From a virus (Duplodnaviria; Heunggongvirae; Uroviricota; Caudoviricetes), in the IMG/VR virus record IMGVR_UViG_2563366976_000005: 13,080 bases of DNA. One strand, 5' to 3'. The translations under genes and the position numbers were made by a program. The stretch's first letter is position 1; every line of letters starts with the position of its first letter. The notes under the pieces are model-generated. The model did no database searches. It was not told where the DNA came from and worked only from the letters and a program-made list of their open reading frames with translations. Of the stretch, positions 1 to 13,080 are shown piece by piece.

Positions 1-1284
1 TTACTTCTTCGCCTCTGCAACCACTTTACTACCCACGCCGCGGTTATTGTATTCCCACATGCGGTTGTAGTTAGTGTCATTCAGATTGCGCTGTATTTCG
101 TCGTTATCATCTACGCTGCCGGTATTACCCGCAAACGGACGATTAGAGATCACCGCATCGGCCCACGGTTTAGCCGTGTTAAAACCTTCGTTGATGGCGC
201 TATCACGGATCACCACCTGACCGTTGGTATTGGCATCAACATCCAGCGAGCGGCCCAGTTGCGCCACACCATCACCGAAAGCATTGAAACGGCTGTTTAC
301 GGCGAGGAAACCGTAGTAAATGTTGGACAGCGTAGCCGGTGCAAACACATACGCTTCTTGCTGAGTACGTGAGTTCACCACGCGGAATTCGGTGTTATCG
401 AACACCACTGCGCCGCGACCAGAAACGATATCCACATCCCCTTCAATGTAGCTGTTGGTCACCAGCGTACGCGGCTGACGATTCGTTTCCAGACGGTTCT
501 GCACACCGCTGTTGGTGACAAAGAAGGTGTTCTGACGACCGAGAATGTTAACGTTGTTAATCTGTACCTGGTCACCATCAGTACGCAGTGCCACCGCCGG
601 ATGGTTACCTGCATCTACGCTATCGCCCAGCGTGTTTTCGATGGTCAGATTTTGCAGTTGCAGGCCATTGTTTTGTGACCAGAAGACCGCAGAGCAGAGA
701 ACACCGATACTGTCGCTGCGTTTGCTCTGGCAGCTATCGTACATATACCACGCTGGTTTACCTGGCATATATTTGCCGCGCGGGTTGACGTCGTGACGCC
801 AGTCGGCAGGGCTCATGCCACCATCAAGGGAAAGCCCAATCTTCACATCAATCGGTTTTTCACCTGTACCGTACAGAGTAATTCCACCCGGAGCGGCAGG
901 GACATATACCGTTCCCTGATACTCACCAGGCATCACGGCAATATACTGGCGCTTGTTGGTACGCTTGATAATTGCCGCATCTACCGCCGCCTGAATCGTG
1001 GTATGCGTTACACCTTGAGTGCCCGCCGGGCCGACAACAAAGTCAGGTTGCGCAGGCAGGGTAATCGGGGAAGGATTCCACGCTGCAGCACCTGGTGTCA
1101 GGGATGCAAAATAGTGTTGAGCATCGAAATTCTGCGCTTCTTTTGCCGACAGAATCGGGCGAGAAGAGGTACCAGGCGCGGTTTGATCAGAAGGACGTTG
1201 ATCGGGCGGGGTTGAGCTACAGGCGGTCAGCGTCACGCCAAAAGCCAATGCCAGCGCCAGACGGGAAACTGAAAATGTGTTCAC
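1..1284 (-). CDS. ybhC: YbhC, pectinesterase-family outer-membrane lipoprotein (acyl-CoA thioesterase), host chromosomal gene flanking attB-lambda
   Basis: Complete 427-aa ORF with its stop at 1..3. It has a signal peptide with lipobox LTAC. Pectinesterase-like blocks are present in variant form (GRQNTFF, GDVDIVSG, QLGRS). It lies directly next to the lambda att core, as ybhC does in E. coli. Confidence 0.9.
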   Translation of the reverse strand: MNTFSVSRLALALAFGVTLTACSSTPPDQRPSDQTAPGTSSRPILSAKEAQNFDAQHYFASLTPGAAAWNPSPITLPAQPDFVVGPAGTQGVTHTTIQAAVDAAIIKRTNKRQYIAVMPGEYQGTVYVPAAPGGITLYGTGEKPIDVKIGLSLDGGMSPADWRHDVNPRGKYMPGKPAWYMYDSCQSKRSDSIGVLCSAVFWSQNNGLQLQNLTIENTLGDSVDAGNHPAVALRTDGDQVQINNVNILGRQNTFFVTNSGVQNRLETNRQPRTLVTNSYIEGDVDIVSGRGAVVFDNTEFRVVNSRTQQEAYVFAPATLSNIYYGFLAVNSRFNAFGDGVAQLGRSLDVDANTNGQVVIRDSAINEGFNTAKPWADAVISNRPFAGNTGSVDDNDEIQRNLNDTNYNRMWEYNNRGVGSKVVAEAKK

Positions 1285-1320
1285 AGGTTGCTCCGGGCTA
1301 TGAAATAGAAAAATGAATCC

Positions 1321-1420
1321 GTTGAAGCCTGCTTTTTATACTAAGTTGGCATTATAAAAAAGCATTGCTTATCAATTTGTTGCAACGAACAGGTCACTAT
1401 CAGTCAAAATAAAATCATTA
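1321..1420. other. attL: attL (B-O-P'): core 1331..1344, IHF H' site 1370..1382, Int arm-type sites P'1 to P'3 at 1391..1420
   Basis: The core reads gctttttatactaa. It is preceded by the host B arm (gttgaagcct) and followed by gttggcattataaaaaagcattgcttatcaatttgttgcaacgaacaggtcactatcagtcaaaataaaatcatta, recalled as the lambda P' arm. tatcaatttgttg fits the IHF consensus WATCAANNNNTTR. aggtcactat, cagtcaaaat and aaaatcatta are arm-type Int sites. Confidence 0.9.
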
Positions 1421-2488
1421 TTTGATTTCAATTTTGTCCCACTCCCTGCCTCTGTCATCACGATACTGTGATGCCATGGTGTCCGACTTATGCCCGAGAA
1501 GATGTTGAGCAAACTTATCGCTTATCTGCTTCTCATAGAGTCTTGCAGACAAACTGCGCAACTCGTGAAAGGTAGGCGGATCCCCTTCGAAGGAAAGACC
1601 TGATGCTTTTCGTGCGCGCATAAAATACCTTGATACTGTGCCGGATGAAAGCGGTTCGCGACGAGTAGATGCAATTATGGTTTCTCCGCCAAGAATCTCT
1701 TTGCATTTATCAAGTGTTTCCTTCATTGATATTCCGAGAGCATCAACATGCAATGCTGTTGGGATGGCAATTTTTACGCCTGTTTTGCTTTGCTCGACAT
1801 AAAGATATCCATCTACGATATCAGACCACTTCATTTCGCATAAATCACCAACTCGTTGCCCGGTAACAACAGCCAGTTCCATTGCAAGTCTGAGCCAACA
1901 TGGTGATGATTCTGCTGCTTGATAAATTTTCAGGTATTCGTCAGCCGTAAGTCTTGATCTCCTTACCTCTGATTTTGCTGCGCGAGTGGCAGCGACAGGG
2001 TTTGTTGTTATATGGCCTTCAGCTATTGCCTCTCGGAATGCATCGCTCAGTGTTGATCTGATTAACTTGGCTGACGCCGCCTTGCCCTCGTCTATGTATC
2101 CATTGAGCATTGCCGCAATTTCTTTTGTGGTGATGTCTTCAAGTGGAGCATCAGGCAGACCCCTCCTTATTGCTTTAATTTTGCTCATGTAATTTATGAG
2201 TGTCTTCTGCTTGATTCCTCTGCTGGCCAGGATTTTTTCGTAGCGATCAAGCCATGAATGTAACGTAACGGAATTATCACTGTTGATTCTCGCTGTCAGA
2301 GGCTTGTGTTTGTGTCCTGAAAATAACTCAATGTTGGCCTGTATAGCTTCAGTGATTGCGATTCGCCTGTCTCGGCCTAATCCAAACTCTTTACCCGTCC
2401 TTGGGTCCCTGTAGCAGTAATATCCATTGTTTCTTATATAAAGGTTAGGGGGTAAATCCCGGCGCTCATGACTTCGCCTTCTTCCCAT
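1418..2488 (-). CDS. int: Lambda-type tyrosine integrase Int
   Basis: The 356-aa ORF is essentially lambda Int by recall (MGRRRSHERRDLPPNLYIRNNGYYCY...). The catalytic set is intact: R in GQRVGDL, H..R in HELRSL, H in LLGHKS, Y in ASQY. It overlaps xis as in lambda. Confidence 0.97.
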   Translation of the reverse strand: MGRRRSHERRDLPPNLYIRNNGYYCYRDPRTGKEFGLGRDRRIAITEAIQANIELFSGHKHKPLTARINSDNSVTLHSWLDRYEKILASRGIKQKTLINYMSKIKAIRRGLPDAPLEDITTKEIAAMLNGYIDEGKAASAKLIRSTLSDAFREAIAEGHITTNPVAATRAAKSEVRRSRLTADEYLKIYQAAESSPCWLRLAMELAVVTGQRVGDLCEMKWSDIVDGYLYVEQSKTGVKIAIPTALHVDALGISMKETLDKCKEILGGETIIASTRREPLSSGTVSRYFMRARKASGLSFEGDPPTFHELRSLSARLYEKQISDKFAQHLLGHKSDTMASQYRDDRGREWDKIEIK

Positions 2489-2684
2489 TTCTGATCCTCT
2501 TCAAAAGGCTACCTGTTACTGGTCGATTTAAGTCAACCTTTACCGCTGATTCGTGGAACAGATATTCTCTTCCATCCTTAACCGGAGGAGGGAATATCCT
2601 GCATTCGCGCACCCATCGACGAACTGTTTCAAGGCTTCTTGGGCGTCGCTGGCGAGCGTTCCACTCCTGAAGTGTCAAGTACAT
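2466..2684 (-). CDS. xis: Excisionase Xis
   Basis: The 72-aa ORF MYLTLQEWNARQRRPRSLETVRRWVRECRIFPPPVKDGREYLFHESAVKVDLNRP... matches lambda Xis by recall. Its 23-nt overlap with the int start is as in lambda. Confidence 0.95.
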   Translation of the reverse strand: MYLTLQEWNARQRRPRSLETVRRWVRECRIFPPPVKDGREYLFHESAVKVDLNRPVTGSLLKRIRNGKKAKS

Positions 2685-2710
2685 CGCAAAGTCTCCGCAA
2701 TTACACGCAA

Positions 2711-2732
2711 GAAAAAACCGCCATCAGGCGGC
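2711..2732 (-). terminator. Putative intrinsic terminator (leftward) overlapping the orf55 stop
   Basis: The minus strand reads gccgcc-tgat-ggcgg followed by tttttt. The stem is 5 bp and GC-only. Confidence 0.5.
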
Positions 2733-2891
2733 TTGGTGTTCTTTCAGTTCTTCAATTCGAATATTGGTTACGTCTGCATGTGCTATCTGCGCCCACAGCA
2801 TCCAGTGGTTATAGCAGTCGCTGATGTTCTCGGCTTCGATAACTCTGTTGAATGGTTCTCCATTCCATTCACCTGTAACTCGGAAGTGCAT
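2724..2891 (-). CDS. Small lambda orf55-like protein (55 aa), below the ORF-track cutoff
   Basis: Hand translation gives MHFRVTGEWNGEPFNRVIEAENISDCYNHWMLWAQIAHADVTNIRIEELKEHQAA, with ATG at 2891..2889 and TGA at 2726..2724. It resembles the lambda ORF between xis and ea8.5 by recall. Confidence 0.6.
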   Translation of the reverse strand: MHFRVTGEWNGEPFNRVIEAENISDCYNHWMLWAQIAHADVTNIRIEELKEHQAA

Positions 2892-2902
2892 TTATCATCG
2901 CC

Positions 2903-2929
2903 ATAAAACAAAACTCGCCGTAGCGAGTT
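2903..2929 (-). terminator. Putative intrinsic terminator (leftward), second of a tandem pair
   Basis: The minus strand reads aactcgc-tacg-gcgagtt followed by ttgttttat. The stem is 7 bp (2912..2918 with 2923..2929). Confidence 0.6.
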
Positions 2930-2931
2930 CA

Positions 2932-2960
2932 GATAAAAGAAAACCCGCACTCGGCGGGTT
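2932..2960 (-). terminator. Putative intrinsic terminator (leftward), closes the accessory cassette
   Basis: The minus strand reads aacccgc-cgagt-gcgggtt followed by ttcttttat. The stem is 7 bp (2942..2948 with 2954..2960). Confidence 0.7.
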
Positions 2961-2980
2961 CGCATTCGTTCAAATTGCGT

Positions 2981-3262
2981 TTACTTCTTGGCGTTCTGTT
3001 CATCCATATCGATATACCATGGGTTGCTTCCCTTGGGCATGTTTAACGACTGCTCGCGATAGTATCTGATGCGCTCCATGAAATACTCGCGTGAGTGCTC
3101 AGGTTGCTCTCATGATACCTGCTCAGTGATAACAGGTATGTTAAGGCGCTCTCTGTACTCCATGCCTGATGCTGCAAGGTCAACGTTTACCTTGTTCTGT
3201 TTTTCTTTCGATTTCTCGGCGATGTTATGCCTGACATTGTCAACCCGCCTCCTTCTGAACAT
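2981..3262 (-). pseudogene. 93-codon reading frame broken by one in-frame TGA (3110..3112); alternatively two short ORFs of 50 and 32 aa
   Basis: Hand translation gives MFRRRRVDNVRHNIAEKSKEKQNKVNVDLAASGMEYRERLNIPVITEQVS-stop-EQPEHSREYFMERIRYYREQSLNMPKGSNPWYIDMDEQNAKK-stop. The same frame runs on both sides of the TGA. No clear SD precedes the ATG at 3262. Confidence 0.3.
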
Positions 3263-3482
3263 AACGGTTATAAATCAGTCCCTGAGGGCCATAAGGAAGC
3301 GGGATGTGCAACTCCTCTGGTTCAGAAACTATCCATTCCCCGGCCATCTCCGCTGGAGAGGTAATGATAAGTTGTTTGCTAATAAAAGGACCACTCCTCT
3401 CAACAACAAGCTTACCATCTTCATTAATAAAAGCTTGGATGTCAGGTGTGCTTCCACACTTGGTGATGCAGCGTTTGAACAT
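3240..3482 (-). CDS. Hypothetical protein (80 aa from MFKRC; the frame is open to 3524)
   Basis: This minus-strand ORF runs in the same direction as the operon. A G-rich SD (ggggggacacaaaATG) precedes the ATG at 3482. The putative promoter at 3513..3521 would exclude the 3524 start. I recognise no family. Confidence 0.4.
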   Translation of the reverse strand: MFKRCITKCGSTPDIQAFINEDGKLVVERSGPFISKQLIITSPAEMAGEWIVSEPEELHIPLPYGPQGLIYNRYVQKEAG

Positions 3483-3512
3483 TTTGTGTCCCCCCATTTT
3501 ATGGACGGGGTA

Positions 3513-3521
3513 ATTATAACA
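3513..3521 (-). promoter_or_regulatory. Putative extended -10 promoter element (TGtTATAAT) for the accessory cassette
   Basis: The minus strand reads gTGtTATAAT in an AT-rich 85-nt spacer (3525..3608). No good -35 is present, which is acceptable for extended -10 promoters. Confidence 0.35.
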
Positions 3522-3608
3522 CATTGAAATATAGTAATATTTGACGTAGATTTCTTTTGATCTATAAGCGATTTTTTAATGCTTTTAAGTTATAAATACT
3601 TGTTTTCA

Positions 3609-4184
3609 TCACCCATCTTGCTGCGGTGCTACTATTGAAAAGTACTCACACCCTTTAGCCCAAATAGTTTTGATAGTTGTCCAACTGACTGGAACCTTGA
3701 TTTCGATTCTTCCGCTGCCGTCACAAGTTTCGCAATCATCATCACCAAAGCATTCCGGGCAGCTTATAAACGTAGTTTCTGAAAATTCACCGGATAGCAC
3801 ACCCTTAGCGCCGTTCTCAGCGGTTAGTTTCTTCGGCACTATAACCCAACCATCCGGAGTTACCGGAGAATTGCCATTTATATCGAAGTTTGGCTCTGCG
3901 TCCTGAACCAGGAGGATGTAACCATTCTTGGCAGTATCAAGTTCTAACGCCTCGGTGACGGTACCGAAATAGCGATTACCTAAATCCGCATCACAAGTGC
4001 TTACATCAATGGAAACCTCCATGCCTTCGATTAATTCTGGCAAGTTGTAAGTTTGGCTTACAGGTTCTGCTCCCAGTGATGCCAGTGCAATTCGTGCCAG
4101 TTCCATTTGTTCGCCACGAGTAAGCCCGTTTTCAAGCGGATTTTTAATGAACAATTCAATACGTTCTTTGGTAATAGTGGTCAT
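3609..4184 (-). CDS. Hypothetical protein with a C-terminal DnaJ-type CxxC..CxxCxGxG zinc-ribbon motif
   Basis: 191-aa ORF with SD aaggactaacaaATG. The motif is CPECFGDDDCETCDGSGRI. The N-terminal part (LTRGEQMELARIALASLGAEPV) resembles N-termini of the variable Ead/Ea22-region proteins of lambdoid phages. Confidence 0.6.
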   Translation of the reverse strand: MTTITKERIELFIKNPLENGLTRGEQMELARIALASLGAEPVSQTYNLPELIEGMEVSIDVSTCDADLGNRYFGTVTEALELDTAKNGYILLVQDAEPNFDINGNSPVTPDGWVIVPKKLTAENGAKGVLSGEFSETTFISCPECFGDDDCETCDGSGRIEIKVPVSWTTIKTIWAKGCEYFSIVAPQQDG

Positions 4185-4194
4185 TTGTTAGTCC

Positions 4195-4950
4195 TTAAAC
4201 TGCTAGTTGCAATTGCATTTCAAAGCGGTCGCGTTGTTCACAATACGCAAGAGAACCAGGGCTATTGTGTGCCTCAATCCGTTCTACCATTAATGCTGCG
4301 CGTGTCTCTTTACTTGCAGGTGCATAAGCCCCAGACCAGGCTTTATCAATACCGATGTTTCGAGCGACGTTCGTACTATCTGCGCTGGCTAAGGGTAATT
4401 TTGTGAATATCAGCGGATTTAACATGCGCAATCCATGTAGTTTCGTAACCGGCTGACCATGCCCATCAACAATGTGACGAATCAGGTCTTTCATTCTGGC
4501 TACCGCAAGAGTTGGGCGCTTTACGTCATAGTCGCCACAACTACCGATAGCCACTCGCGGAAACTCATTGCACAAATGAATAAATCGCTCGTCACTTTCA
4601 TTCATGTGCCACACTGGAACGCCAGCTAGTTTTCCGTGAGGCCACTCATTCAGAAGCGCATCATTTTCCTCCTCTCCGCCATCAATAACATCCGGGATAA
4701 TGGCAAAATCGAATCCTGGGTGATTCTTCCAGCGAGCAACAAACTCGTAGTAATCGCTCCAGTCGATTTTGTTTTTGCCAGCTGCTTTCCAGGCGGTGAA
4801 TGCACCGTTGTCCAGCGCGAACGACTGACAGTATTCAGCCGCGAGATTGATCTGGCCTGAATGCGCAAAACTGATAAACGCATGTCGCCCTTTCCATGCT
4901 CTCATTGCGCACGTATCAGGAGTAATAGGCCCACCGTGGTAGTGAATCAT
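4195..4950 (-). CDS. TGT-superfamily protein, DpdA-like (putative guanine/7-deazaguanine transglycosylase)
   Basis: 251 aa from MIHYHGGP. The SD is aaaggagagtgagATG, and this start lies 1 nt after the upstream gene's stop, so I prefer it to the 4992 start. Motifs are colinear with E. coli Tgt: FALDNGAF/TDSGGFQ, IIPDVI/MIFDEC, VAIGSCG/YAVGGLA, LHGLRM/LMGVGK, ADSTNVARN/FDCVMPTRNARN. The assignment is not confirmed by a search. Confidence 0.55.
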   Translation of the reverse strand: MIHYHGGPITPDTCAMRAWKGRHAFISFAHSGQINLAAEYCQSFALDNGAFTAWKAAGKNKIDWSDYYEFVARWKNHPGFDFAIIPDVIDGGEEENDALLNEWPHGKLAGVPVWHMNESDERFIHLCNEFPRVAIGSCGDYDVKRPTLAVARMKDLIRHIVDGHGQPVTKLHGLRMLNPLIFTKLPLASADSTNVARNIGIDKAWSGAYAPASKETRAALMVERIEAHNSPGSLAYCEQRDRFEMQLQLAV

Positions 4951-4951
4951 C

Positions 4952-5359
4952 TCACTCTCCTTTGATGCGAATGCCAGTAGCGCGGATTGCATCGATGACT
5001 TCAGAAACTTTGTATGCCATTACCGTTTGGTAATCATCGTGAAAATCTGTTCGATGAAGCATGCTGCTACGTTCCGGGAGCAGTATTTCCCGCGCTTCCA
5101 GTTCTGCAATGCGCTTTTTTGCTGCTTCCAGTTCATCCAGTAATTCCAGCACGGTAGCCGGATTAGCCTTGGCAACAAAATCCCGGACTGGCTTACAATC
5201 AATCTCCGCAATGGGTTGATACGATGTGTAGCCATGCTGTCTTGTATAACTACCGTGACGAATAACGAAAAAATCACCATTTATTTTTTTAGCCTGCCAC
5301 TTATCTTCACCGGCTTTCTCTGCCGCTTCACGCAGTGCCTGAGAGTTAATTTCGCTCAC
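4952..5359 (-). CDS. Ead/Ea22-like family protein (lambda Ea22 N-terminus, divergent body)
   Basis: 135 aa with a GTG start in a GTGA overlap with the upstream stop. The first residues, MSEINSQALREAAE, and the last, GIRIKGE, match lambda Ea22 by recall. The coiled-coil segment LELLDELEAAKKRIAELE is typical of the family. Confidence 0.7.
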   Translation of the reverse strand: MSEINSQALREAAEKAGEDKWQAKKINGDFFVIRHGSYTRQHGYTSYQPIAEIDCKPVRDFVAKANPATVLELLDELEAAKKRIAELEAREILLPERSSMLHRTDFHDDYQTVMAYKVSEVIDAIRATGIRIKGE

Positions 5360-5577
5360 GTCGAACCTCTCTGTTTACTGATAAGCTCCAGATCTTGCTG
5401 GCAACTGGCACAAGTCCGACAACCCTGAACGGCCAGTCGTCTTCGTTCATCTATCGGATCGCCACACTCACAACAATGAGTGGCAGATATAGCCTGGTGG
5501 TTCAGGCGGCGCATTTTTATTGCTGTGTTGCGCTGTAATTCTTCAATTTCTGATGCTGAATCAATTATGTCTGCCAT
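5356..5577 (-). CDS. DksA/TraR-family C4 zinc-finger protein (lambda orf73-like)
   Basis: 73 aa with CCECGDPIDERRRLAVQGCRTCASCQ, which is CxxC-x17-CxxC. The position matches lambda orf73. Confidence 0.85.
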   Translation of the reverse strand: MADIIDSASEIEELQRNTAIKMRRLNHQAISATHCCECGDPIDERRRLAVQGCRTCASCQQDLELISKQRGST

Positions 5578-5629
5578 CTTTCATTAATCCCTGAATTGTT
5601 GGTTAATACGCTTGAGGGTGAATGCGAAT

Positions 5630-5653
5630 AATAAAAAAGGAGCCTGTAGCTCC
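5630..5653 (-). terminator. Putative intrinsic terminator (leftward)
   Basis: The minus strand reads ggagc-tacag-gctcc followed by ttttttatt. Confidence 0.55.
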
Positions 5654-5675
5654 CTGATGATTTTGCTTTTCATGT

Positions 5676-5891
5676 TCACCGTTCCTTAAAGACGCCGTTC
5701 AACATGCCGATCGCCAGGCTTAAATGAGTCGGTGTGAATCCCATCAGCGTTACCGTTTCGCGGTGCTTCTTTAGTACGCTACGGCAAATGTAATCGACGT
5801 TTTTATCCGGAAACTGCTGTCTGGCTTTTTTGATTTCAGAATTAGCCTGACGGGCAATGCTGCGAAGGGCGTTTTCTTGCTGAGGTGTCAT
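5676..5891 (-). CDS. Lambda orf61-region hypothetical protein (71 aa from MTPQQ)
   Basis: I chose the start at the ATGA overlap with the preceding 27-codon ORF. The longer ORF-track start at 5957 has no SD and would overlap that ORF. Confidence 0.6.
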   Translation of the reverse strand: MTPQQENALRSIARQANSEIKKARQQFPDKNVDYICRSVLKKHRETVTLMGFTPTHLSLAIGMLNGVFKER

Positions 5892-5971
5892 TGAACAAGC
5901 CCCATGTCGGCAAGCATAAGCACACAGAATATGAAGCCCGCTGCCAGAAAAATGCATTCAGTGGTTGTCAT
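5888..5971 (-). CDS. 27-aa hydrophobic micro-protein, below the ORF-track cutoff
   Basis: Hand translation gives MTTTECIFLAAGFIFCVLMLADMGLVQ. ATGA overlaps occur at both ends: with the orf63 stop at 5968..5971 and with the next gene's start at 5888..5891. Confidence 0.45.
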   Translation of the reverse strand: MTTTECIFLAAGFIFCVLMLADMGLVQ

Positions 5972-6159
5972 ACCTGGTCTCTCTCATCTGCTTCTGCTTT
6001 CGCCACCATCATTTCCAGCTTTTGTGAAAGGGATGCGGCTAACGTATGAAATTCTTCGTCTGTTTCTACTGATATTGGCACAAACCTGACTCCAATTTGA
6101 GCGAGGCTATGTGCCATCTCGATACTCGTTCTTAACTCAACGGGAGATGCTTTGTGCAT
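5968..6159 (-). CDS. Lambda orf63-like protein
   Basis: 63-aa [26 protein letters not shown]... matches lambda orf63 by recall. Confidence 0.75.
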   Translation of the reverse strand: MHKASPVELRTSIEMAHSLAQIGVRFVPISVETDEEFHTLAASLSQKLEMMVAKAEADERDQV

Positions 6160-6314
6160 ACAGCTCCCCGTTTATTATTTATCTCCTCAGCCAGCCGCTG
6201 TGCTTTCAGGGGATTTCTGATAACAGAAAGGCCGGGAAATACCCAGCCTCGCTTTGTAATGGAGTAGACGAAAGTGATCGCGCCCACCCGGATATTATCG
6301 TGAGGATGCGTCAT
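6132..6314 (-). CDS. Lambda orf60a-like protein
   Basis: [61 protein letters not shown] chose the start at the ATGA overlap with the exo stop (6311..6314). Confidence 0.75.
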
Positions 6315-6991
6315 CGCCATTGCTCCCCAAATACAAAACCAATTTCAGCCAGTGCCTCGTCCATTTTTTCGATGAACTCCGGCACCATCTCGTCAAAACT
6401 CGCCATGTACTTTTCATCCCGCTCAACCACGACATAATGCAGGCCTTCACGCTTCATACGCGGGTCATAGTTGGCAAAGTACCAGGCATCTTTTCGCGTC
6501 ACCCACATGCTGTACTGCACCTGGGCCATGTAAGCCGACTTTATGGCCTCGAAACCACCGAGCCGGAACTTCATGAAATCCCGGGAGGTAAACGGGCATT
6601 TCAGCTCAAGGCCATTGCCGTCACTGCATAAACCATCGGGAGAGCAGGCGGTACGCATACTTTCGTCGCGATAGATGATCGGGGATTCAGTAACATTCAC
6701 GCCGGAAGTGAATTCAAACAGAGTTCTGGCGTCGTTCTCGTACTGTTTTCCCCATGCCAGCGCCTTAGCATTAACTTCCGGAGCCACACCGGTGCAAACC
6801 TCAGCCAGCAGGGTGTGGAAGTAGGACATTTTCATGTCAGGCCACTTTTTTCCGGAGCGGGGTTTTGCTATCACATTGTGAACTTCTGAAGCGGTGATGA
6901 CGCCGAGCCGTAATTTGTGCCACGCATCATCCCCCTGTTCGACAGCTCTCACGTCGATTCCGGTACGCTGCAGGATAATGTCCGGTGTCAT
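6311..6991 (-). CDS. exo: Lambda exonuclease (Red alpha)
   Basis: The 226-aa [68 protein letters not shown]... is lambda Exo by recall. Confidence 0.97.
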
Positions 6992-7773
6992 GCAGCCACC
7001 TTCTGCTCAGTGGCTTTCTGTTTCAGGAATCCAAGAGCTTTCACTGCTTCGGCCTGTGTCAGTTCTGACGATGCGCGAATGTCGCGGCGAAATATCTGGG
7101 AACAGAGCGGCAATAAGTCGTCATCCCATGTTTTATCCAGGGCAATCAGCAGAGTGTTAATCTCCTGCATGGTTTCATCGTTAACCGGAGTGATGTCGCG
7201 TTCCGGCTGACGTTCTGCAGTGTATGCGGTATTTTCGACAATGCGCTCGGCTTCATCCTTGTCATAGATACCCGCAAATCCGAAGGCCAGACGGGCACAC
7301 TGAATCATGGCTTTATGCCGTAACATCCGTTTGGGATGCGACTGCCACGGCCCCGTAATTTCTCTGCCTTCGCGGGTTTTGAATGGTTCGCGGCGGCATT
7401 CATCCATCCACTCGGTAACGCAGATCGGATGATTACGGTCCTTGCGGTAAATCCGGCATGTACAGGATTCATTGTCCTGCTCAAAGTCCATGCCATCAAA
7501 CTGCTGGTTTTCATTGATGATGCGGGACCAGCCATCAACGCCCACCACCGGAACGATGCCATTCTGCTTATCAGGAAAGGTGTAAATTTCTTTCGTCCAC
7601 GGATTAAGGCCGTACTGGTTGGCAACGATCAGTAATGCGATGAACTGCGCATCGCTGGCATCACCTTTAAATGCCGTCTGGCGAAGAGTGGTGATCAGTT
7701 CCTGTGGGTCGACAGAATCCATGCCGACACGTTCAGCCAGCTTCCCAGCCAGCGTTGCGAGTGCTGTACTCAT
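6988..7773 (-). CDS. bet: Lambda Bet single-strand annealing protein (Red beta)
   Basis: The 261-aa [67 protein letters not shown]... is lambda Bet by recall. A 4-nt overlap links it to exo. Confidence 0.97.
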
Positions 7774-7778
7774 CCGTT

Positions 7779-8075
7779 TTATACCTCTGAATCAATATCA
7801 ACCTGGTGGTGAGCAATGGTTTCAACCATGTACCGGATGTGTTCTGCCATGCGCTCCTGAAACTCAACATCGTCATCAAACGCACGGGTAATGGCTTTTT
7901 TGCTGGCCCCGTGGCGTTGCAAATGATCGATGCATAGCGATTCAAACAGGTGCTGGGGCAGGCCTTTTTCCATGTCGTCTGCCAGTTCTGCCTCTTTCTC
8001 TTCACGGGCGATCTGCTGGTAGTGACGCGCCCAGCTCTGAGCCTCAAGACGATCCTGAATGTAATAAGCGTTCAT
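7779..8075 (-). CDS. gam: Gam RecBCD inhibitor (98-aa GamS form)
   Basis: [56 protein letters not shown]... is lambda Gam by recall. Confidence 0.95.
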
Positions 8076-8150
8076 GGCTGAACTCCTGAAAATGGCTGTG
8101 AAAATATCGCCCGCGAAATGCCAGGCTGATTAGGAAAACAGGAAAGGGGA

Positions 8151-8357
8151 TTAGCGATTCAGGCCGTTACCGCGTCCGTCGAGAAAAACTTCCACGAGCA
8201 AATCACGGGTATAAGTGCGCTCGATGCCGCGATGCAGATAAAGCCGTCCGCGTAAATTAGCTGATGCAGTCCAGGTACCATCTTTGTGTTTGACCAGCAT
8301 TCCTGGCATGACCGCACCTCGATTAACGGTCTGCGTTCCGTAATGTTGATGAACCAT
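8151..8357 (-). CDS. KilR-like small protein (putative FtsZ-directed host-killing function), in place of lambda kil
   Basis: 68 aa from MVHQHYGTQ with a strong SD (gcAGGAGtttttATG). By recall it aligns along its full length with Rac KilR: MIAHHFGTD.., ..YIASANN..KLYI.., ..IKVFLGRDAGG... The ORF-track frame is open upstream to a TTG at 8561, but without an SD. Confidence 0.55.
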
Positions 8358-8578
8358 AAAAACTCCTGCCCGTAAGCTGGGCTGCTGAACATATAGAGAC
8401 TTCTGCGCGTATTCAGGCGGTGGATGGCCGCCGGTTGTCATAACTAAGTCGCCTCGTTGAAGCGACTGAGGTATGAAGTGTTGAGTTGATTTCAGCTGGT
8501 CACACCGACGTTCACGCGTCCGCTTCACCCCTCGCACTCCCCGAAGCCTGCTGAAATTCAAACTGCGGATCTAAGCGG

Positions 8579-8630
8579 TCATCGCAACGGTGAAACAGGT
8601 GGTTACCGTATCGTTGTGTCGTTGCGATGA
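8579..8630 (-). other. Long inverted repeat at the 5' end of the predicted pL transcript
   Basis: tcatcgcaacg (8579..8589) and cgttgcgatga (8620..8630) are perfect 11-nt complements around a 30-nt loop. The loop contains acggt/accgt and a second cgttg copy that allows alternative pairing. No U-tract follows. Confidence 0.5.
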
Positions 8631-8634
8631 ATTT

Positions 8635-8710
8635 ATTTAAAACTATAGTTGTTTTATCGTCAACAACAAAAGTTGTTTTGTCGGTTGTTTTAAATATAAC
8701 TGGTTGTATT
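8635..8710 (-). promoter_or_regulatory. pL / oL region
   Basis: The minus strand has TTGACG (8663..8658), a 17-nt spacer, then TTAAAT (8640..8635). The block GTTGTTGAC..AAAACAAC.ATAGTTTTAA is shared with pR. GTTGT/ACAAC half-sites start at 8648, 8663, 8672, 8684 and 8703. Confidence 0.6.
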
Positions 8711-8802
8711 TAGGATGGATTTATTTTGTGACTTGCATCGCATAGCGATAACTGAAGTGAGGTGTGGTGGTTTTTTGGACGGTATGAGTTATGAGGGGGA
8801 GG

Positions 8803-8830
8803 AAAAGAAAACCCGGCGCGGTTGCCGGGT
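8803..8830 (-). terminator. Intrinsic terminator after the lipoprotein gene (functional analogue of t-imm)
   Basis: The minus strand reads acccggc-aaccgc-gccgggt followed by tttcttttcc. The stem is 7 bp (8811..8817 with 8824..8830). Confidence 0.75.
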
Positions 8831-8837
8831 ATGATTA

Positions 8838-9218
8838 TCAGTCAGCCCAACCTGATTTCGAGTTTATTTGGGTTTCTGACATTGTGTATTTCTTAATCGT
8901 GTCATCGTTAAAAAGAATAGTAAGTTCTTTTTTCGTACCGTTCGTTCCATTATGGAATAATCCATAGAATGGAATAAAAGTGGTGCCATTAACTTTTACT
9001 TTTGCAAAGGCGTACTTCCAGATCTCGTTTCCACTGTCAGTATATGAAACAGCATCAGGAGAACCAAAGTAAGATTTAACCTCATTCTTGGTTGTTTTAC
9101 CTTCCTGAAGTTTAGACTGGACACTAATTTCAGTTTCATTTTTGAGTTGCTGGTTGCCTGAAGAAGCACACCCAGCCAATACAGATGCCATCATGGCAGC
9201 GATTAGGATTTTTCTCAT
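8838..9218 (-). CDS. Prophage-encoded lipoprotein, BamE/SmpA-OmlA (BLIP-fold)-like
   Basis: 126 aa. The signal peptide carries lipobox LAGC, and +2 is Ala, which predicts outer-membrane sorting. KLQEGKTTKNEVKSYFGSPD fits the motif common to BamE-like small lipoproteins. The gene is visibly AT-rich compared with its neighbours. It occupies the rexAB position between cI and pL. Confidence 0.7.
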   Translation of the reverse strand: MRKILIAAMMASVLAGCASSGNQQLKNETEISVQSKLQEGKTTKNEVKSYFGSPDAVSYTDSGNEIWKYAFAKVKVNGTTFIPFYGLFHNGTNGTKKELTILFNDDTIKKYTMSETQINSKSGWAD

Positions 9219-9447
9219 TTTATGTTTCCATTCATTATAATCAGAAACATCTTAACATAATGATTCGAAATAAAAACCGCTACGAGATAGGGGGACATTT
9301 TGCTGACAGTAGCAACAAATCTCAGCTAACAACGAGAATATTTACTGAAATATGCAAACAGATTTGGCGTTCTTATAGAGAATTTAGTGCAATATCTAAT
9401 CCGAGTGGTATAAACCTTAACCTTCGCTCCCTTAAGTCGTAGATAAA

Positions 9448-10137
9448 TTAACCATGCTTCCTGTACGTCTGCGGCATGCTTCCAATGACCTTACCGAATA
9501 TGAACACCCGGTTCATCTCGTCTTTCTCGATCGGGTCCCACGGCGAGTAGCTCTTGTTATCAGAGATAACCAGCAGCTTATCCTTCATCATTTGAAGACG
9601 TTTTACATGGGCAGTGTCGTCGTACAGAAACGCATAGATGCCATCACCGTCGAAAGATTTAACAGTGATATCAACGAACAGCAGGTCACCTGGTTCGATC
9701 GTCCCTGACATGCTGTCACCTCGCACGTTAATGATGCGGATATTTTCCGCCTTCCTGCCATCGAACATGTGACGAGCATCGTCAAACGAGTACTCAACCG
9801 AGCGTAGAACTTCTACAAACTCACGGTTGATTACACCTGGCCCGGCACTGACTTCTATATCAAGAACGTCAATTTTGAAGTATTTGGAATGGCTGACAGT
9901 TGATTGTATTGGTTGCACTGTACTGTCTGACATATTTCCAACGCCAGAAGATAACCATTCTGCGCGCACACCCAAAGCGTTCGCGATCTCCACGATTTTA
10001 GTTGTTTGGTTAGCTTTCCCTGTTTCGATTTTCTGAATAGCAGCCTGGCTAACCCCGACCAAATCCCCAAGCGCCTTTTGTGTAAGGCCTCGCGCTAATC
10101 TGGCTTCTTTAAGTCTTTCTGAGAGTGTTGTTTTCAT
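9448..10137 (-). CDS. cI: CI-type prophage repressor (N-terminal XRE HTH, C-terminal S24 LexA-like autopeptidase)
   Basis: 229 aa. The HTH is LTQKALGDLVGVSQAAIQKIETG. The candidate Ala-Gly cleavage site is in VSAGPG. The Ser is in GDSMSGT and the Lys in HVKRL. The gene is divergent from cro. No SD precedes its ATG. Confidence 0.9.
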   Translation of the reverse strand: MKTTLSERLKEARLARGLTQKALGDLVGVSQAAIQKIETGKANQTTKIVEIANALGVRAEWLSSGVGNMSDSTVQPIQSTVSHSKYFKIDVLDIEVSAGPGVINREFVEVLRSVEYSFDDARHMFDGRKAENIRIINVRGDSMSGTIEPGDLLFVDITVKSFDGDGIYAFLYDDTAHVKRLQMMKDKLLVISDNKSYSPWDPIEKDEMNRVFIFGKVIGSMPQTYRKHG

Positions 10138-10241
10138 AGATCAAATGTACAACCAAGGTTTTATTTCATCAAACGAAAATGGTTGTTGACTAAAAACAAC
10201 CATAGTTTTAATCTTGATTCGGATTAACCACGGAGGTTGTT
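10138..10241. promoter_or_regulatory. oR / pR / pRM divergent control region
   Basis: A perfect 9-bp inverted repeat, atggttgtt-N7-aacaaccat (10179..10203), overlaps pR -35 TTGACT (10186..10191). The pR -10 is taatct (10209..10214). Candidate pRM on the minus strand is TTGATG (10172..10167), 17 nt, then TACATT (10149..10144), which places the transcription start at or next to the cI ATG. Extra half-sites are ACAACC at 10149 and GGTTGT at 10235. Confidence 0.6.
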
Positions 10242-10472
10242 ATGAACCCAGCAATCAAAACAGCGATCAATATCGTTGGTTCACAAAAGAAACTAGGCGA
10301 TGCCTGCGAAGTTTCACAGCAGGCCGTCTATAAGTGGCTTCACAACAAAGCAAAGGTATCCCCTGAACATGTCGGCAGCATTGTTACGGCTACTGGTGGA
10401 GTTGTGAAGGCATACCAGATTCGCCCGGATCTTCCGAAGTTGTTTCCACACACCGAAAAGAACGCAGCTTAA
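10242..10472 (+). CDS. cro: Cro-like repressor, YdaS family HTH
   Basis: 76 aa with SD cggaggttgttATG. The pattern IVGSQKKLGDACEVSQQAVYKWL...TGGVV....IRPDL parallels Rac YdaS by recall. Confidence 0.8.
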   Translation: MNPAIKTAINIVGSQKKLGDACEVSQQAVYKWLHNKAKVSPEHVGSIVTATGGVVKAYQIRPDLPKLFPHTEKNAA

Positions 10473-10484
10473 ATTTCCATTTCA

Positions 10485-10497
10485 CGCTCTTTAACAA
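10485..10497 (+). promoter_or_regulatory. boxA element (nutR position)
   Basis: cgctctttaacaa matches the rrn boxA TGCTCTTTAACAA at 12 of 13 positions. It lies between cro and the CII analogue, where lambdoid nutR sites lie. Confidence 0.65.
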
Positions 10498-10541
10498 TAA
10501 GCAATCAACTTAACAGTCAATTCAAACTAAAGGAGTCAATT

Positions 10542-11081
10542 ATGCAACCACTTACATACCAACAGACTAGCGGATTTATTCCGACTGCGGTGATAAATCG
10601 TTCTCAAACAAAACAAGCTCCAGGCCACGAAAAAATCCGTGATGCCGTCCGCGCCTGGTCGGCTGTAGATAATCAGGATGTCGTTGCCGCACTCATTGTG
10701 AATGAGTATCGGGAGCAGGGCGACGGCACCATCGATTTCCCTGATGATGTCAGCCGTGCACGCCAGAAGCTGTTCCGCTTCCTCGATAACAAATTCGATT
10801 CTGAAAAATACCGAAATAACGTGCGTGAACTGACCCCGGCAATTCTGGCGGTACTACCGCTGGAATATCGCGGTTACCTGGTTGAGCAGGATAGCTTCAT
10901 GACTCGGTTGGCTGAAATGGAAAAGGAACTCAGTGAGGCAAAACAGGCTGTCATTCTCAACGCACCACGCCACCAGAAACTGAAGGAAATGAGTGAAGGT
11001 ATTGTGTCGATGTTTCGTGTGGACCCGGATCTGGCTGGTCCATTAATGGCGATGGTGACCACCATGCTGGGGGCAATATGA
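10542..11081 (+). CDS. YdaT-like protein (functional analogue of CII)
   Basis: 179 aa with SD aaaggagtcaattATG. VAALIVNEYREQG.. and LTPAILAVLPLEYRGYL parallel Rac YdaT (ANAITEEYLRQGG, LIPAILAILPRELRHRL) by recall. It sits in the cII position. Confidence 0.7.
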   Translation: MQPLTYQQTSGFIPTAVINRSQTKQAPGHEKIRDAVRAWSAVDNQDVVAALIVNEYREQGDGTIDFPDDVSRARQKLFRFLDNKFDSEKYRNNVRELTPAILAVLPLEYRGYLVEQDSFMTRLAEMEKELSEAKQAVILNAPRHQKLKEMSEGIVSMFRVDPDLAGPLMAMVTTMLGAI

Positions 11082-11167
11082 CAGGTTCAGAAATGGCGAA
11101 AGTCGGTCTGCGGGAACAGAACCGACTTTCAGGTGCAAATCGTAACACACTCATTGCGGGAGGAATT

Positions 11168-12097
11168 ATGGCAAACACTGCTGAGATATTCAATTTTCCA
11201 GTGCCGGATGCGGCACAAAAGGAGCCGCGCGTGGCAGATCTCGATGATGGTTATACGCGCATTGCAAATGAGTTGCTGGAAGCTGTGATGCTGGCCGGAT
11301 TAACACAGCACCAGCTTCTGGTCTTCCTGGCTGTCATGCGCAAAACATATGGCTTTAATAAAAAACTGGATTGGGTGAGCAACGAGCAACTTTCCGAGTT
11401 GACCGGGATATTGCCGCACAAGTGTTCTGCTGCAAAAAGCGTTCTGGTAAAGCGTGGGATTCTTATTCAGAGCGGGCGGAATATCGGCATTAATAATGTG
11501 GTCAGTGAATGGTCAACATTACCCGAATCAGGTAAGAAAAATAAAGTTTACCTGAAAGAGGTAAATTTACCTGAATCAGGTAAGAAAAGTTTACCCAAAT
11601 CAGGTAAAGGCGTTTACCCGAATCAGGTAAACACAAAAGACAAACTAACAAAAGACAATATAAAACCTTTTTCGTCCGAGAATTCTGGCGAATCCTCTGA
11701 CCAACCAGAAAACGATCTTCCTGTGGAGAAACCAGATGCTGCAATTCAGAGCGGCAGCAGGTGGGGGACAGCAGAAGACCTGACCGCCGCAGAGTGGATG
11801 TTTGACATGGTGAAGACCATCGCGCCATCAGCCAGAAAACCGAATTTTGCAGGGTGGGCTAACGATATCCGCCTGATGCGTGAACGTGACGGACGTAACC
11901 ACCGCGACATGTGCGTGCTGTTCCGCTGGGCATGCCAGGACAACTTCTGGTCCGGTAACGTGCTAAGTCCGGCCAAACTCCGCGACAAGTGGACCCAACT
12001 CGAAATCAACCGTAACAAGCAACAGGCTGGCGTGACAGCCGGAAAATCAAAACTCGACCTGACAAACACTGACTGGATTTATGGGGTGGATTTATGA
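11168..12097 (+). CDS. O: Replication initiator O (chimeric: novel N-terminal iteron-binding half, lambda-type C-terminal half)
   Basis: I chose the start MANTAEIFNF (SD gggaggaattATG) because it aligns with lambda O MTNTAKILNF. An in-frame alternative ATG at 11078 forms an ATGA overlap with the upstream stop. From about SSENSGESSDQPENDL to the end the protein equals lambda O by recall. Confidence 0.85.
   Translation: MANTAEIFNFPVPDAAQKEPRVADLDDGYTRIANELLEAVMLAGLTQHQLLVFLAVMRKTYGFNKKLDWVSNEQLSELTGILPHKCSAAKSVLVKRGILIQSGRNIGINNVVSEWSTLPESGKKNKVYLKEVNLPESGKKSLPKSGKGVYPNQVNTKDKLTKDNIKPFSSENSGESSDQPENDLPVEKPDAAIQSGSRWGTAEDLTAAEWMFDMVKTIAPSARKPNFAGWANDIRLMRERDGRNHRDMCVLFRWACQDNFWSGNVLSPAKLRDKWTQLEINRNKQQAGVTAGKSKLDLTNTDWIYGVDL
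11519..11630. repeat. ori: Replication origin iterons (five copies) inside O
   Basis: TTACCyGAAwsAGGTAA occurs at 11519..11535, 11548..11564, 11567..11583, 11591..11607 and 11614..11630. Each copy is internally palindromic (TTACC-N7-GGTAA). An A-rich tract follows at 11631..11670. The layout matches lambda ori, but the iteron sequence is different. Confidence 0.85.
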
Positions 12098-12771
12098 AAA
12101 ACATCGCCGCACAGATGGTTAACTTTGACCGTGAGCAGATGCGCCGGATCGCCAACAACATGCCGGAACAGTACGACGAAAAGCCGCAGGTACAGCAGGT
12201 AGCGCGGATCATCAACGGTGTGTTCAGCCAGTTACTGGCAACTTTCCCGGCGAGCCTGGCTAACCGGGACCAGAACGAACTGAACGAAATCCGCCGCCAG
12301 TGGGTTCTGGCTTTCCGGGAAAACGGGATCACCACAATGGAACAGGTTAACGCAGGAATGCGCGTAGCCCGTCGGCAGAATCGACCATTCCTGCCATCAC
12401 CCGGGCAGTTTGTCGCCTGGTGCCGGGAAGAAGCATCCGTTACCGCCGGACTGCCAAACGCCAGCGAGCTGGTTGATATGGTTTACGAGTATTGCCGGAA
12501 GCGTGGCCTGTATCCGGACGCAGAGTCTTATCCATGGAAATCAAACGCGCACTACTGGTTGGTTACCAACCTGTACCAGAACATGCGGGCCAATGCGCTG
12601 ACTGACGCGGAATTACGGCGTAAAGCTGCCGATGAGCTGACCTGTATGACCGCGCGAATTAACCGTGGTGAGGCGATACCTGAACCAGTAAAACAACTTC
12701 CTGTCATGGGCGGTAGGCCTCTAAATCGTGCACAGGCTCTGGCGAAGATCGCAGAAATCAAAGCGAAGTGA
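12094..12771 (+). CDS. P: Replication protein P (DnaB loader), C-terminally truncated by IS insertion
   Basis: 225 aa, lambda P by recall up to ...AKIAEIKAK. Lambda P continues FGLKGASV. Here the TGA stop (12769..12771) is the first three bases of the IS inverted repeat. Confidence 0.9.
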   Translation: MKNIAAQMVNFDREQMRRIANNMPEQYDEKPQVQQVARIINGVFSQLLATFPASLANRDQNELNEIRRQWVLAFRENGITTMEQVNAGMRVARRQNRPFLPSPGQFVAWCREEASVTAGLPNASELVDMVYEYCRKRGLYPDAESYPWKSNAHYWLVTNLYQNMRANALTDAELRRKAADELTCMTARINRGEAIPEPVKQLPVMGGRPLNRAQALAKIAEIKAK

Positions 12772-13080
12772 ACCGCCCCGGGAATCCTGGAGACTAAACT
12801 TCCTGAGAAAGAGGTAAACAGGATGACTAAAAATACTCGTTTTTCCCCTGAAGTCCGTCAACGGGCAGTCCGTATGGTTCTGGAAAGTCAGGGCGAATAT
12901 GACTCACAATGGGCGACAATTTGTTCCATTGCTCCAAAGATTGGCTGTACGCCGGAGACTCTGCGTGTCTGGGTTCGCCAGCATGAGCGGGATACCGGGG
13001 GCGGTGATGGAGGGCTCACCACCGCTGAACGTCAGCGTCTGAAAGAGCTGGAACGTGAAAATCGTGAACTGCGCCGCAGT
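12769..13080 (+). mobile_element. IS3-family insertion sequence, IS629/IS1203-like; left end only, continues past the window
   Basis: The terminal repeat tgaaccgccccgggaatcctggagactaaac and the OrfA sequence match IS629 by recall. The TG terminus is typical of the IS3 family. Confidence 0.85.
12823..13080 (+). CDS. IS629-like transposase OrfA (partial, 86 codons in the window)
   Basis: [86 protein letters not shown]. It has an HTH followed by a leucine zipper, typical of IS3 OrfA. The SD is gaggtaaacaggATG. It is absent from the ORF track because it runs off the window end. Confidence 0.85.

Follow-up and report, generated by a model that had tools for sequence, protein, structure and literature searches.

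The window, a stretch of phage DNA of 13,080 nt that was analysed at its full length, ends with the replication genes O and P and the beginning of an insertion sequence (Table 1). The open reading frame of P translates into 225 amino acids with the C-terminal AKIAEIKAK, followed immediately by TGA, as a preliminary description of the locus had read it. A Pfam domain search matched residues 39-198 of the product to PF06992 (E = 8.5e-62), and an O-type initiator gene is located directly upstream, which together place the product among the lambda P helicase loaders. Residues 1-225 are 98% identical to lambda P. The alignment further showed that lambda P does not stop at AKIAEIKAK but extends for eight more codons and ends in FGLKGASV, which is the continuation that the preliminary description had given for it. 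In the comparison with uninterrupted P genes of E. coli, the match ended at base 676 of the query, corresponding to position 12769 of the window. The possibility that the TGA is native, with a P protein naturally ending at K225, was rejected, because lambda P and all of the empty-site alleles described below run eight codons further.

Table 1. Features at the junction of gene P and the insertion sequence (positions in the window)
Feature	Position	Strand	Remarks
Replication initiator gene O, intact	11078..12097	+	PF04492; overlaps the start of P
Replication gene P, truncated	12094..12771	+	225 codons plus IS-derived TGA; helicase-loader family PF06992
Target duplication AAG, left copy	12766..12768	+	Codon K225 of P; right copy outside the window (L001, L007, L008)
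Stop codon TGA of P	12769..12771	+	Bases 1-3 of IS629
IS629 left terminal inverted repeat, TGAACCGCCCCGGGAATCCTGGAGA	12769..12793	+	23/25 complementary to the right end, first 14/14
IS629, first 312 bp of 1310	12769..13080	+	Element continues past the end of the window
IS629 orfA, N-terminal 86 codons, HTH_Tnp_1	12823..13080	+	Co-oriented with P and pR transcription

The window ends 312 nt into the insertion sequence, and the right end of the element was read from two sources. One is the closest complete genome, that of strain 23CRST038 (L001 and L007), a human faecal isolate from Ecuador, which differs from the full window at 2 of 13,080 positions (10586 and 12807); the other is KB732669.1 (L008, GCA_000351465.1), which showed no mismatches across positions 9094-13080. 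Position 12807, which is G in the window and T in 23CRST038, lies between the left inverted repeat and the ribosome-binding site of orfA, and the window agrees with KB732669.1 at both 10586 and 12807.

The element had been described as IS629-like, and this assignment was borne out by the comparison with the mobile_element IS629 of LC567824, a reference that rests on the depositor's annotation 'insertion sequence: IS3 family IS629' rather than on an ISfinder sequence. The 312 nt in the window are identical to it at 311 positions, and the full copy in 23CRST038, with a length of 1310 bp, at 1307 of 1310 (99.8%), as compared with our threshold of at least 95% nucleotide identity over the whole ~1310-bp element. 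The 14-mer TGAACCGCCCCGGG begins exactly at 12769 and occurs only once in the window, where 0.07 matches would be expected by chance with up to two mismatches allowed. Imperfect inverted repeats with TG...CA termini were found at both ends, the left one in the window and the right one in L001, L007 and L008. In L001, orfA (108 aa, HTH_Tnp_1) and orfB (296 aa; rve/DDE, HTH_21) are uninterrupted, and an Rfam ALIL frameshift pseudoknot (120 bits) is located 24 nt past the end of the window, so that the two-ORF architecture with a -1 frameshift element is present, orfA beginning in the window and the rest being read from L001. The Rfam scan of the whole window itself gave no family at its gathering score. 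The IS629 copy in P is complete and, judged from its intact ORFs and from flanks that equal empty sites, apparently active. The genome of 23CRST038 contains 29 places matching a query composed of P plus IS, mostly IS copies.

In 23CRST038 and KB732669.1, the right junction reads ...CCCGGGGCGGTTCA, AAG, TTCGGACTGAAAGGAGCAACTGTATGA, and the eight orphaned codons of P come directly after the right end of the IS. The right end, a 3-bp duplication and the remaining P codons, which the preliminary description had proposed to look for 1.3 kb downstream, were thus all found there, and the ren/nin/Q region, which it had considered to be separated from O-P, is displaced 1,313 bp downstream in the filled-site genome. 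The AAG on either side of the element in L001 and L008 is consistent with the target duplication of 3-4 bp reported for IS629 (PMC3271280). An empty counterpart of the site was found in strain GB089, whose P gene shows 0/675 differences from that of the window. The site there reads gcg AAG TTC GGA CTG AAA GGA GCA ACT GTA TAA, with a single AAG, and the encoded P protein has 233 amino acids and the C-terminal FGLKGATV. Comparison of the 233 residues of the empty-site product with the 225 found here confirmed that the last eight codons of P have been removed.

The T at 12769 is also the T of the native TTC codon, leaving the boundary ambiguous by one base. From the sequence alone, a 4-bp AAGT duplication with an element of 1309 bp is therefore equally possible; however, the canonical TG...CA ends of IS629 and the length of 1310 bp annotated in LC567824 favour AAG, and with AAG the left end of the IS starts exactly at 12769, in accordance with the earlier view that the TGA comes from the IS terminal repeat. 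With either duplication, the stop codon of P arises at the junction and does not belong to the native phage sequence. Both ends of IS629 read TGAACC inward, so that one in three insertions into an open reading frame stops at the first triplet of the IS; a stop codon supplied by the IS is thus the expected outcome, and there is no coincidence to explain. An assembly chimera at a repeated IS was also considered and rejected, since both junctions and the AAG duplication are present in a complete genome. The left junction recurs in several independent assemblies, one of which is a gut metagenome.

The prophage adjoins ybhC, at the classical lambda attachment site, and carries a lambda-type int/xis together with a lambda P' arm. 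In 23CRST038, it is a lambda-like prophage of ~47 kb with a complete-looking set of head, tail and lysis genes. We found the same prophage without the IS in several complete genomes, in one of which it matches positions 1-12769 of the window at 100.0% in a single ungapped piece, indicating that the insertion is younger than any detectable point divergence. The immunity/replication module shares 99.2% identity with its counterpart in phage PhiR26_1, which has an intact P (233 aa) and for which E. coli K-12 MG1655 is recorded as the host; the uninterrupted module type thus has a counterpart among deposited phage isolates.

When 5,426 complete E. coli genomes were searched for P and the junction, one genome only, that of 23CRST038, was found to carry this junction with this P allele, and no junction-spanning record was present among 50,697 phage entries. 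The exact 225-aa P was found in ~43 public contigs (NCBI, ENA, JGI and Logan), including contigs from human-gut metagenomes, and the intact P allele in 644 contigs. Contigs assembled from short reads usually break just inside the IS. A 28-mer junction pattern made degenerate for the P allele gave 0 exact-pattern matches in a one-genome-per-species collection and in JGI metagenomes. In public genomes, the locus is annotated as 'replication protein P' followed by 'IS3 family transposase'. The persistence of the truncated allele in ~43 contigs says nothing about the function of its product, since P is repressed in the lysogen.

We found that the same site is also filled in strain 61_150228 (L003), in a degraded O157-type prophage located at icd, whose P likewise has 225 amino acids. 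There, an IS629 (4676-5985 of L003) follows the same AAG, oriented as in the window and likewise flanked by a duplicated AAG. The P gene of this prophage differs from that of the window at 23 of 675 positions (3.4%), and its IS differs from the window-type IS at 52 of 1310 positions (4.0%), PGAP labelling its transposase as IS1203 family. The similarity of these two degrees of divergence is what would be seen if the two insertions were one ancient event, or if one had spread by recombination between prophages. We nevertheless regard such a shared origin as very improbable. Each filled allele has empty sites of its own, at 100.0% over 1-12769 for the window and at 800/800 for the reconstructed empty site of 61_150228, which is found in many O157:H7 genomes, and these exact counterparts argue that the two insertions are independent and recent. 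In addition, the two IS copies differ about as much as the described subtypes of IS629, which are 4-5% (>55-60 bp) apart (PMC3271280), and the prophages occupy different loci, ybhC and icd. On the basis of the empty-site counterparts, the IS subtypes and the loci, a single ancestral insertion common to the window and 61_150228 was rejected.

Two independent hits at one nucleotide suggest a local target preference, or hot spot, of IS629 at codons 225/226 of P. IS629-type elements were also found elsewhere in the P-ren-nin segment of related prophages, namely those of CFT073, ECO_1_S/ECO_2_R, ECO2947, SCU-306 and M15, at sites from a few hundred bases to ~1 kb 3' of P, in or after ren or after a tagO-like moron, and this segment appears to be a frequent landing zone for IS629. 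A stronger proposal, that K225/F226 is a hot spot of the IS629 group directed by sequence or structure, and that recurrent grounding of prophages would proceed via this one lesion if P(1-225) is dead for replication, seems to us unlikely. The second hit also bears on the suggestion that the junction is of strain-typing grade. This held at the sequence level when the flanking allele is included but failed for presence or absence, because the same site is filled in an unrelated O157-type prophage and an assay for the P-to-IS junction by presence or absence would not be lineage-specific.

To what extent the truncation affects P can be judged from the position of the lost residues. The P protein here has the same O-P-ren operon position as lambda P (PF06992; PDB 6BBM and 8V9T), but, unlike it, is devoid of residues 226-233 and thereby of Phe226 and the last part of the C-terminal lasso; this lasso (domain IV, residues 193-233) is thus incomplete, as P ends at K225. 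In the P-DnaB structure, in which the lambda P chains are modelled to residues 231-233, the contacts of lambda P to DnaB include Ala215, Lys218, Ile219, Ile222 and Phe226, the last of which packs against Met301 and Leu305 of DnaB (PMC12661323). An alignment of 22 P sequences, with homologs down to 63% identity, showed only F, H or Y at position 226 of the full-length sequences and a conservation of at least 90% for G227 and L228, which supports a functional role for the first three of the lost residues. P(1-225) has lost both Phe226 and this conserved [F/H/Y]-G-L motif. These data suggest that P(1-225) is somewhat more likely than not to be impaired in helicase loading, a defect that would be silent in a repressed lysogen.

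An alternative explanation is that P(1-225) is fully or nearly fully functional, in which case the insertion would be silent for replication and any phenotype would come from the 1.3-kb displacement of ren/nin/Q. [quoted passage not shown] Residues past 228 vary in sequence and length among the homologs in the alignment. Moreover, a 66-aa tag on the C-terminus of P still allows complementation of a P amber phage (PMC3640518), suggesting that this end of the protein is not highly sensitive to change. On the other hand, the lost Phe226 is a named hydrophobic contact with two residues of DnaB, and the retention of aromatic-G-L at 226-228 down to 63% identity argues for purifying selection on the very residues that are missing. 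Our literature search found no experimental deletion of residues 226-233 of lambda P. We consider a functional P(1-225) to be a tenable possibility, at somewhat less than even odds. It appears to us improbable that the main effect of the insertion is polarity, whereby the IS would block read-through from pR and leave Q and the late genes unexpressed. The insertion does lengthen the pR operon by 1.3 kb of foreign DNA, and the annotation of this phage type lacks a lambda-N-like gene, so that classical antitermination may be absent. However, a consensus scan of the + strand of the IS gave no convincing intrinsic terminator, the sole terminator-like site being weak, with a 6-bp stem and a poor T run; over the region as a whole, 10 terminator-like sites were counted as compared with 5.6 +/- 2.4 expected. 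In addition, orfA and orfB run in the direction of pR transcription and span most of the insert, which would limit the untranslated RNA available to Rho, and a much stronger native terminator-like hairpin (14936-14957 of L007) lies downstream, which the intact phage must read through or bypass. At the right end of the IS, no outward-facing promoter was detected by the consensus scan. RNA folding of the P-IS junction (12730-12850), in which a hairpin masking the ribosome-binding site of orfA in read-through transcripts was sought, was no better than that of shuffled sequences (z = -0.29). Taken together, polarity of IS629 on the downstream genes is neither supported nor excluded.

Several other features of the prophage were noted. 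The attL core at 1331-1344 of the window, GCTTTTTATACTAA, contains 5 T, in contrast to the canonical core with 6 T, GCTTTTTTATACTAA, that is present in attR of 23CRST038 (48694-48708 of L007) and in attL of the relative M15 (1331-1345 of L013). A pattern search of the window for the canonical 15-bp lambda att core with up to one mismatch gave no match, and the core was recognised by reading, with one T fewer. The 5-T core is shared by the window and 23CRST038, and probably by strain N10. Since the prophage of N10, with an empty P site, equals positions 1-12769 of the window at 100.0%, the deletion in attL seems older than the IS insertion. The loss of this nucleotide, within the 7-bp overlap or next to it, could hamper Int-mediated excision; a sequencing error in the homopolymer is a less likely source of the 5-T core.

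In the early region, no lambda-N-like ORF is present at 8358-9447, between kil (8151-8357, - strand) and cI (9448-10137, - strand); a BamE/SEN1984-like lipoprotein moron (8838-9218, - strand) occupies the position of rex, an arrangement shared with PhiR26_1. Early antitermination in this phage type is apparently managed in another way than by lambda N. The genes at the positions of cro and cII (10242-11081) belong to the Pfam families YdaS_toxin and YdaT_toxin and are Rac-like, not members of the lambda Cro and CII families. The early-left region shows additional traces of decay or mosaicism: a homolog of DNA polymerase III theta (HOT-like; 2981-3262, - strand), for which the annotation of the identical stretch in 23CRST038 gives a pseudogene interrupted by an internal stop, has a DnaJ-like gene and a partial gene on its flanks. 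Downstream of the insertion, ren is a pseudogene with a frameshift and an internal stop (14105-14373 of L007), in filled-site and empty-site relatives alike, and is followed by a TagO/VasI-like moron (14425-14957 of L007) with a strong terminator-like hairpin at 14936-14957, located between P and the Q antiterminator gene. The same prophage harbours a second IS629 (45863-47172 of L007), which lies within an IS2 remnant of the tail-fibre region, where the tail-fibre gene is annotated as truncated. This copy is inverted relative to the one in P and differs from it at 6 of 1310 positions, and ~32 kb of the prophage could be inverted by way of the two copies.

In the account that we favour, with a probability of about 0.9, a recent transposition placed a complete 1310-bp IS629, a member of the IS3 family, between codons 225 and 226 of P, as one event of ordinary prophage decay with a probable defect of the loader. 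Codon 225, AAG, was duplicated in the process, P now ends at the outermost TGA of the IS, giving P(1-225), and the last eight codons (FGLKGATV) and ren/nin/Q have been pushed downstream by 1,313 bp. P(1-225) would then probably be a weakened or dead helicase loader, and the prophage would replicate poorly after induction. The lesion would cost nothing in the repressed lysogen and would be one step of ordinary IS-driven decay, for which no selective explanation is needed.

This account conforms to what is known of IS629 (isoforms IS1203 and IS3411) insertions in prophages of E. coli and Shigella, with which the present element shares the length of 1310 bp, the TG...CA ends, orfA/orfB with the -1 frameshift and the duplication of 3-4 bp. 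We see nothing that differs mechanistically from these insertions; the host strain is no obvious O157. In O157 genomes, 62% of the IS629 sites are located in prophages (PMC3271280), and IS629 is a recognised driver of prophage diversity (PMC3271280, PMC4587872); its distribution is the basis of O157:H7 typing, according to work cited in PMC4587872. A literature search for an insertion at codons 225/226 of P found no description of this site. The insertion of IS629 into a gene of a lambdoid prophage is a known kind of event, and the only mildly unexpected part here is the independent reuse of an identical site. The prophage also resembles 'grounded' lambdoid prophages, such as DLP12 and Rac in K-12 and the Sp prophages of O157 Sakai, in carrying an IS in an essential lytic gene and in its further lesions, namely the ren pseudogene, the second IS629 in the IS2 remnant and the altered attL core. 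Unlike in those prophages, the lesion here is very young, with flanks equal to intact prophages, and the gene has lost only eight codons instead of being destroyed.

The wider significance of this insertion is small, as the contribution of IS629 insertions in prophages to genome variation in E. coli is textbook knowledge. The junction marks a sublineage, represented by the ~43 public contigs, but its use for typing would require the flanking allele to be read as well. As a corollary of the less likely hot-spot proposal above, and with the transposase genes co-oriented with pR, induction of the prophage might transcribe into orfA/orfB and so couple induction to the expression of IS629. The two insertions at an identical nucleotide make the target preference of IS629 open to experiment, and P(1-225) would provide a ready-made test of the share that the last contact of the loader has in the loading of DnaB.
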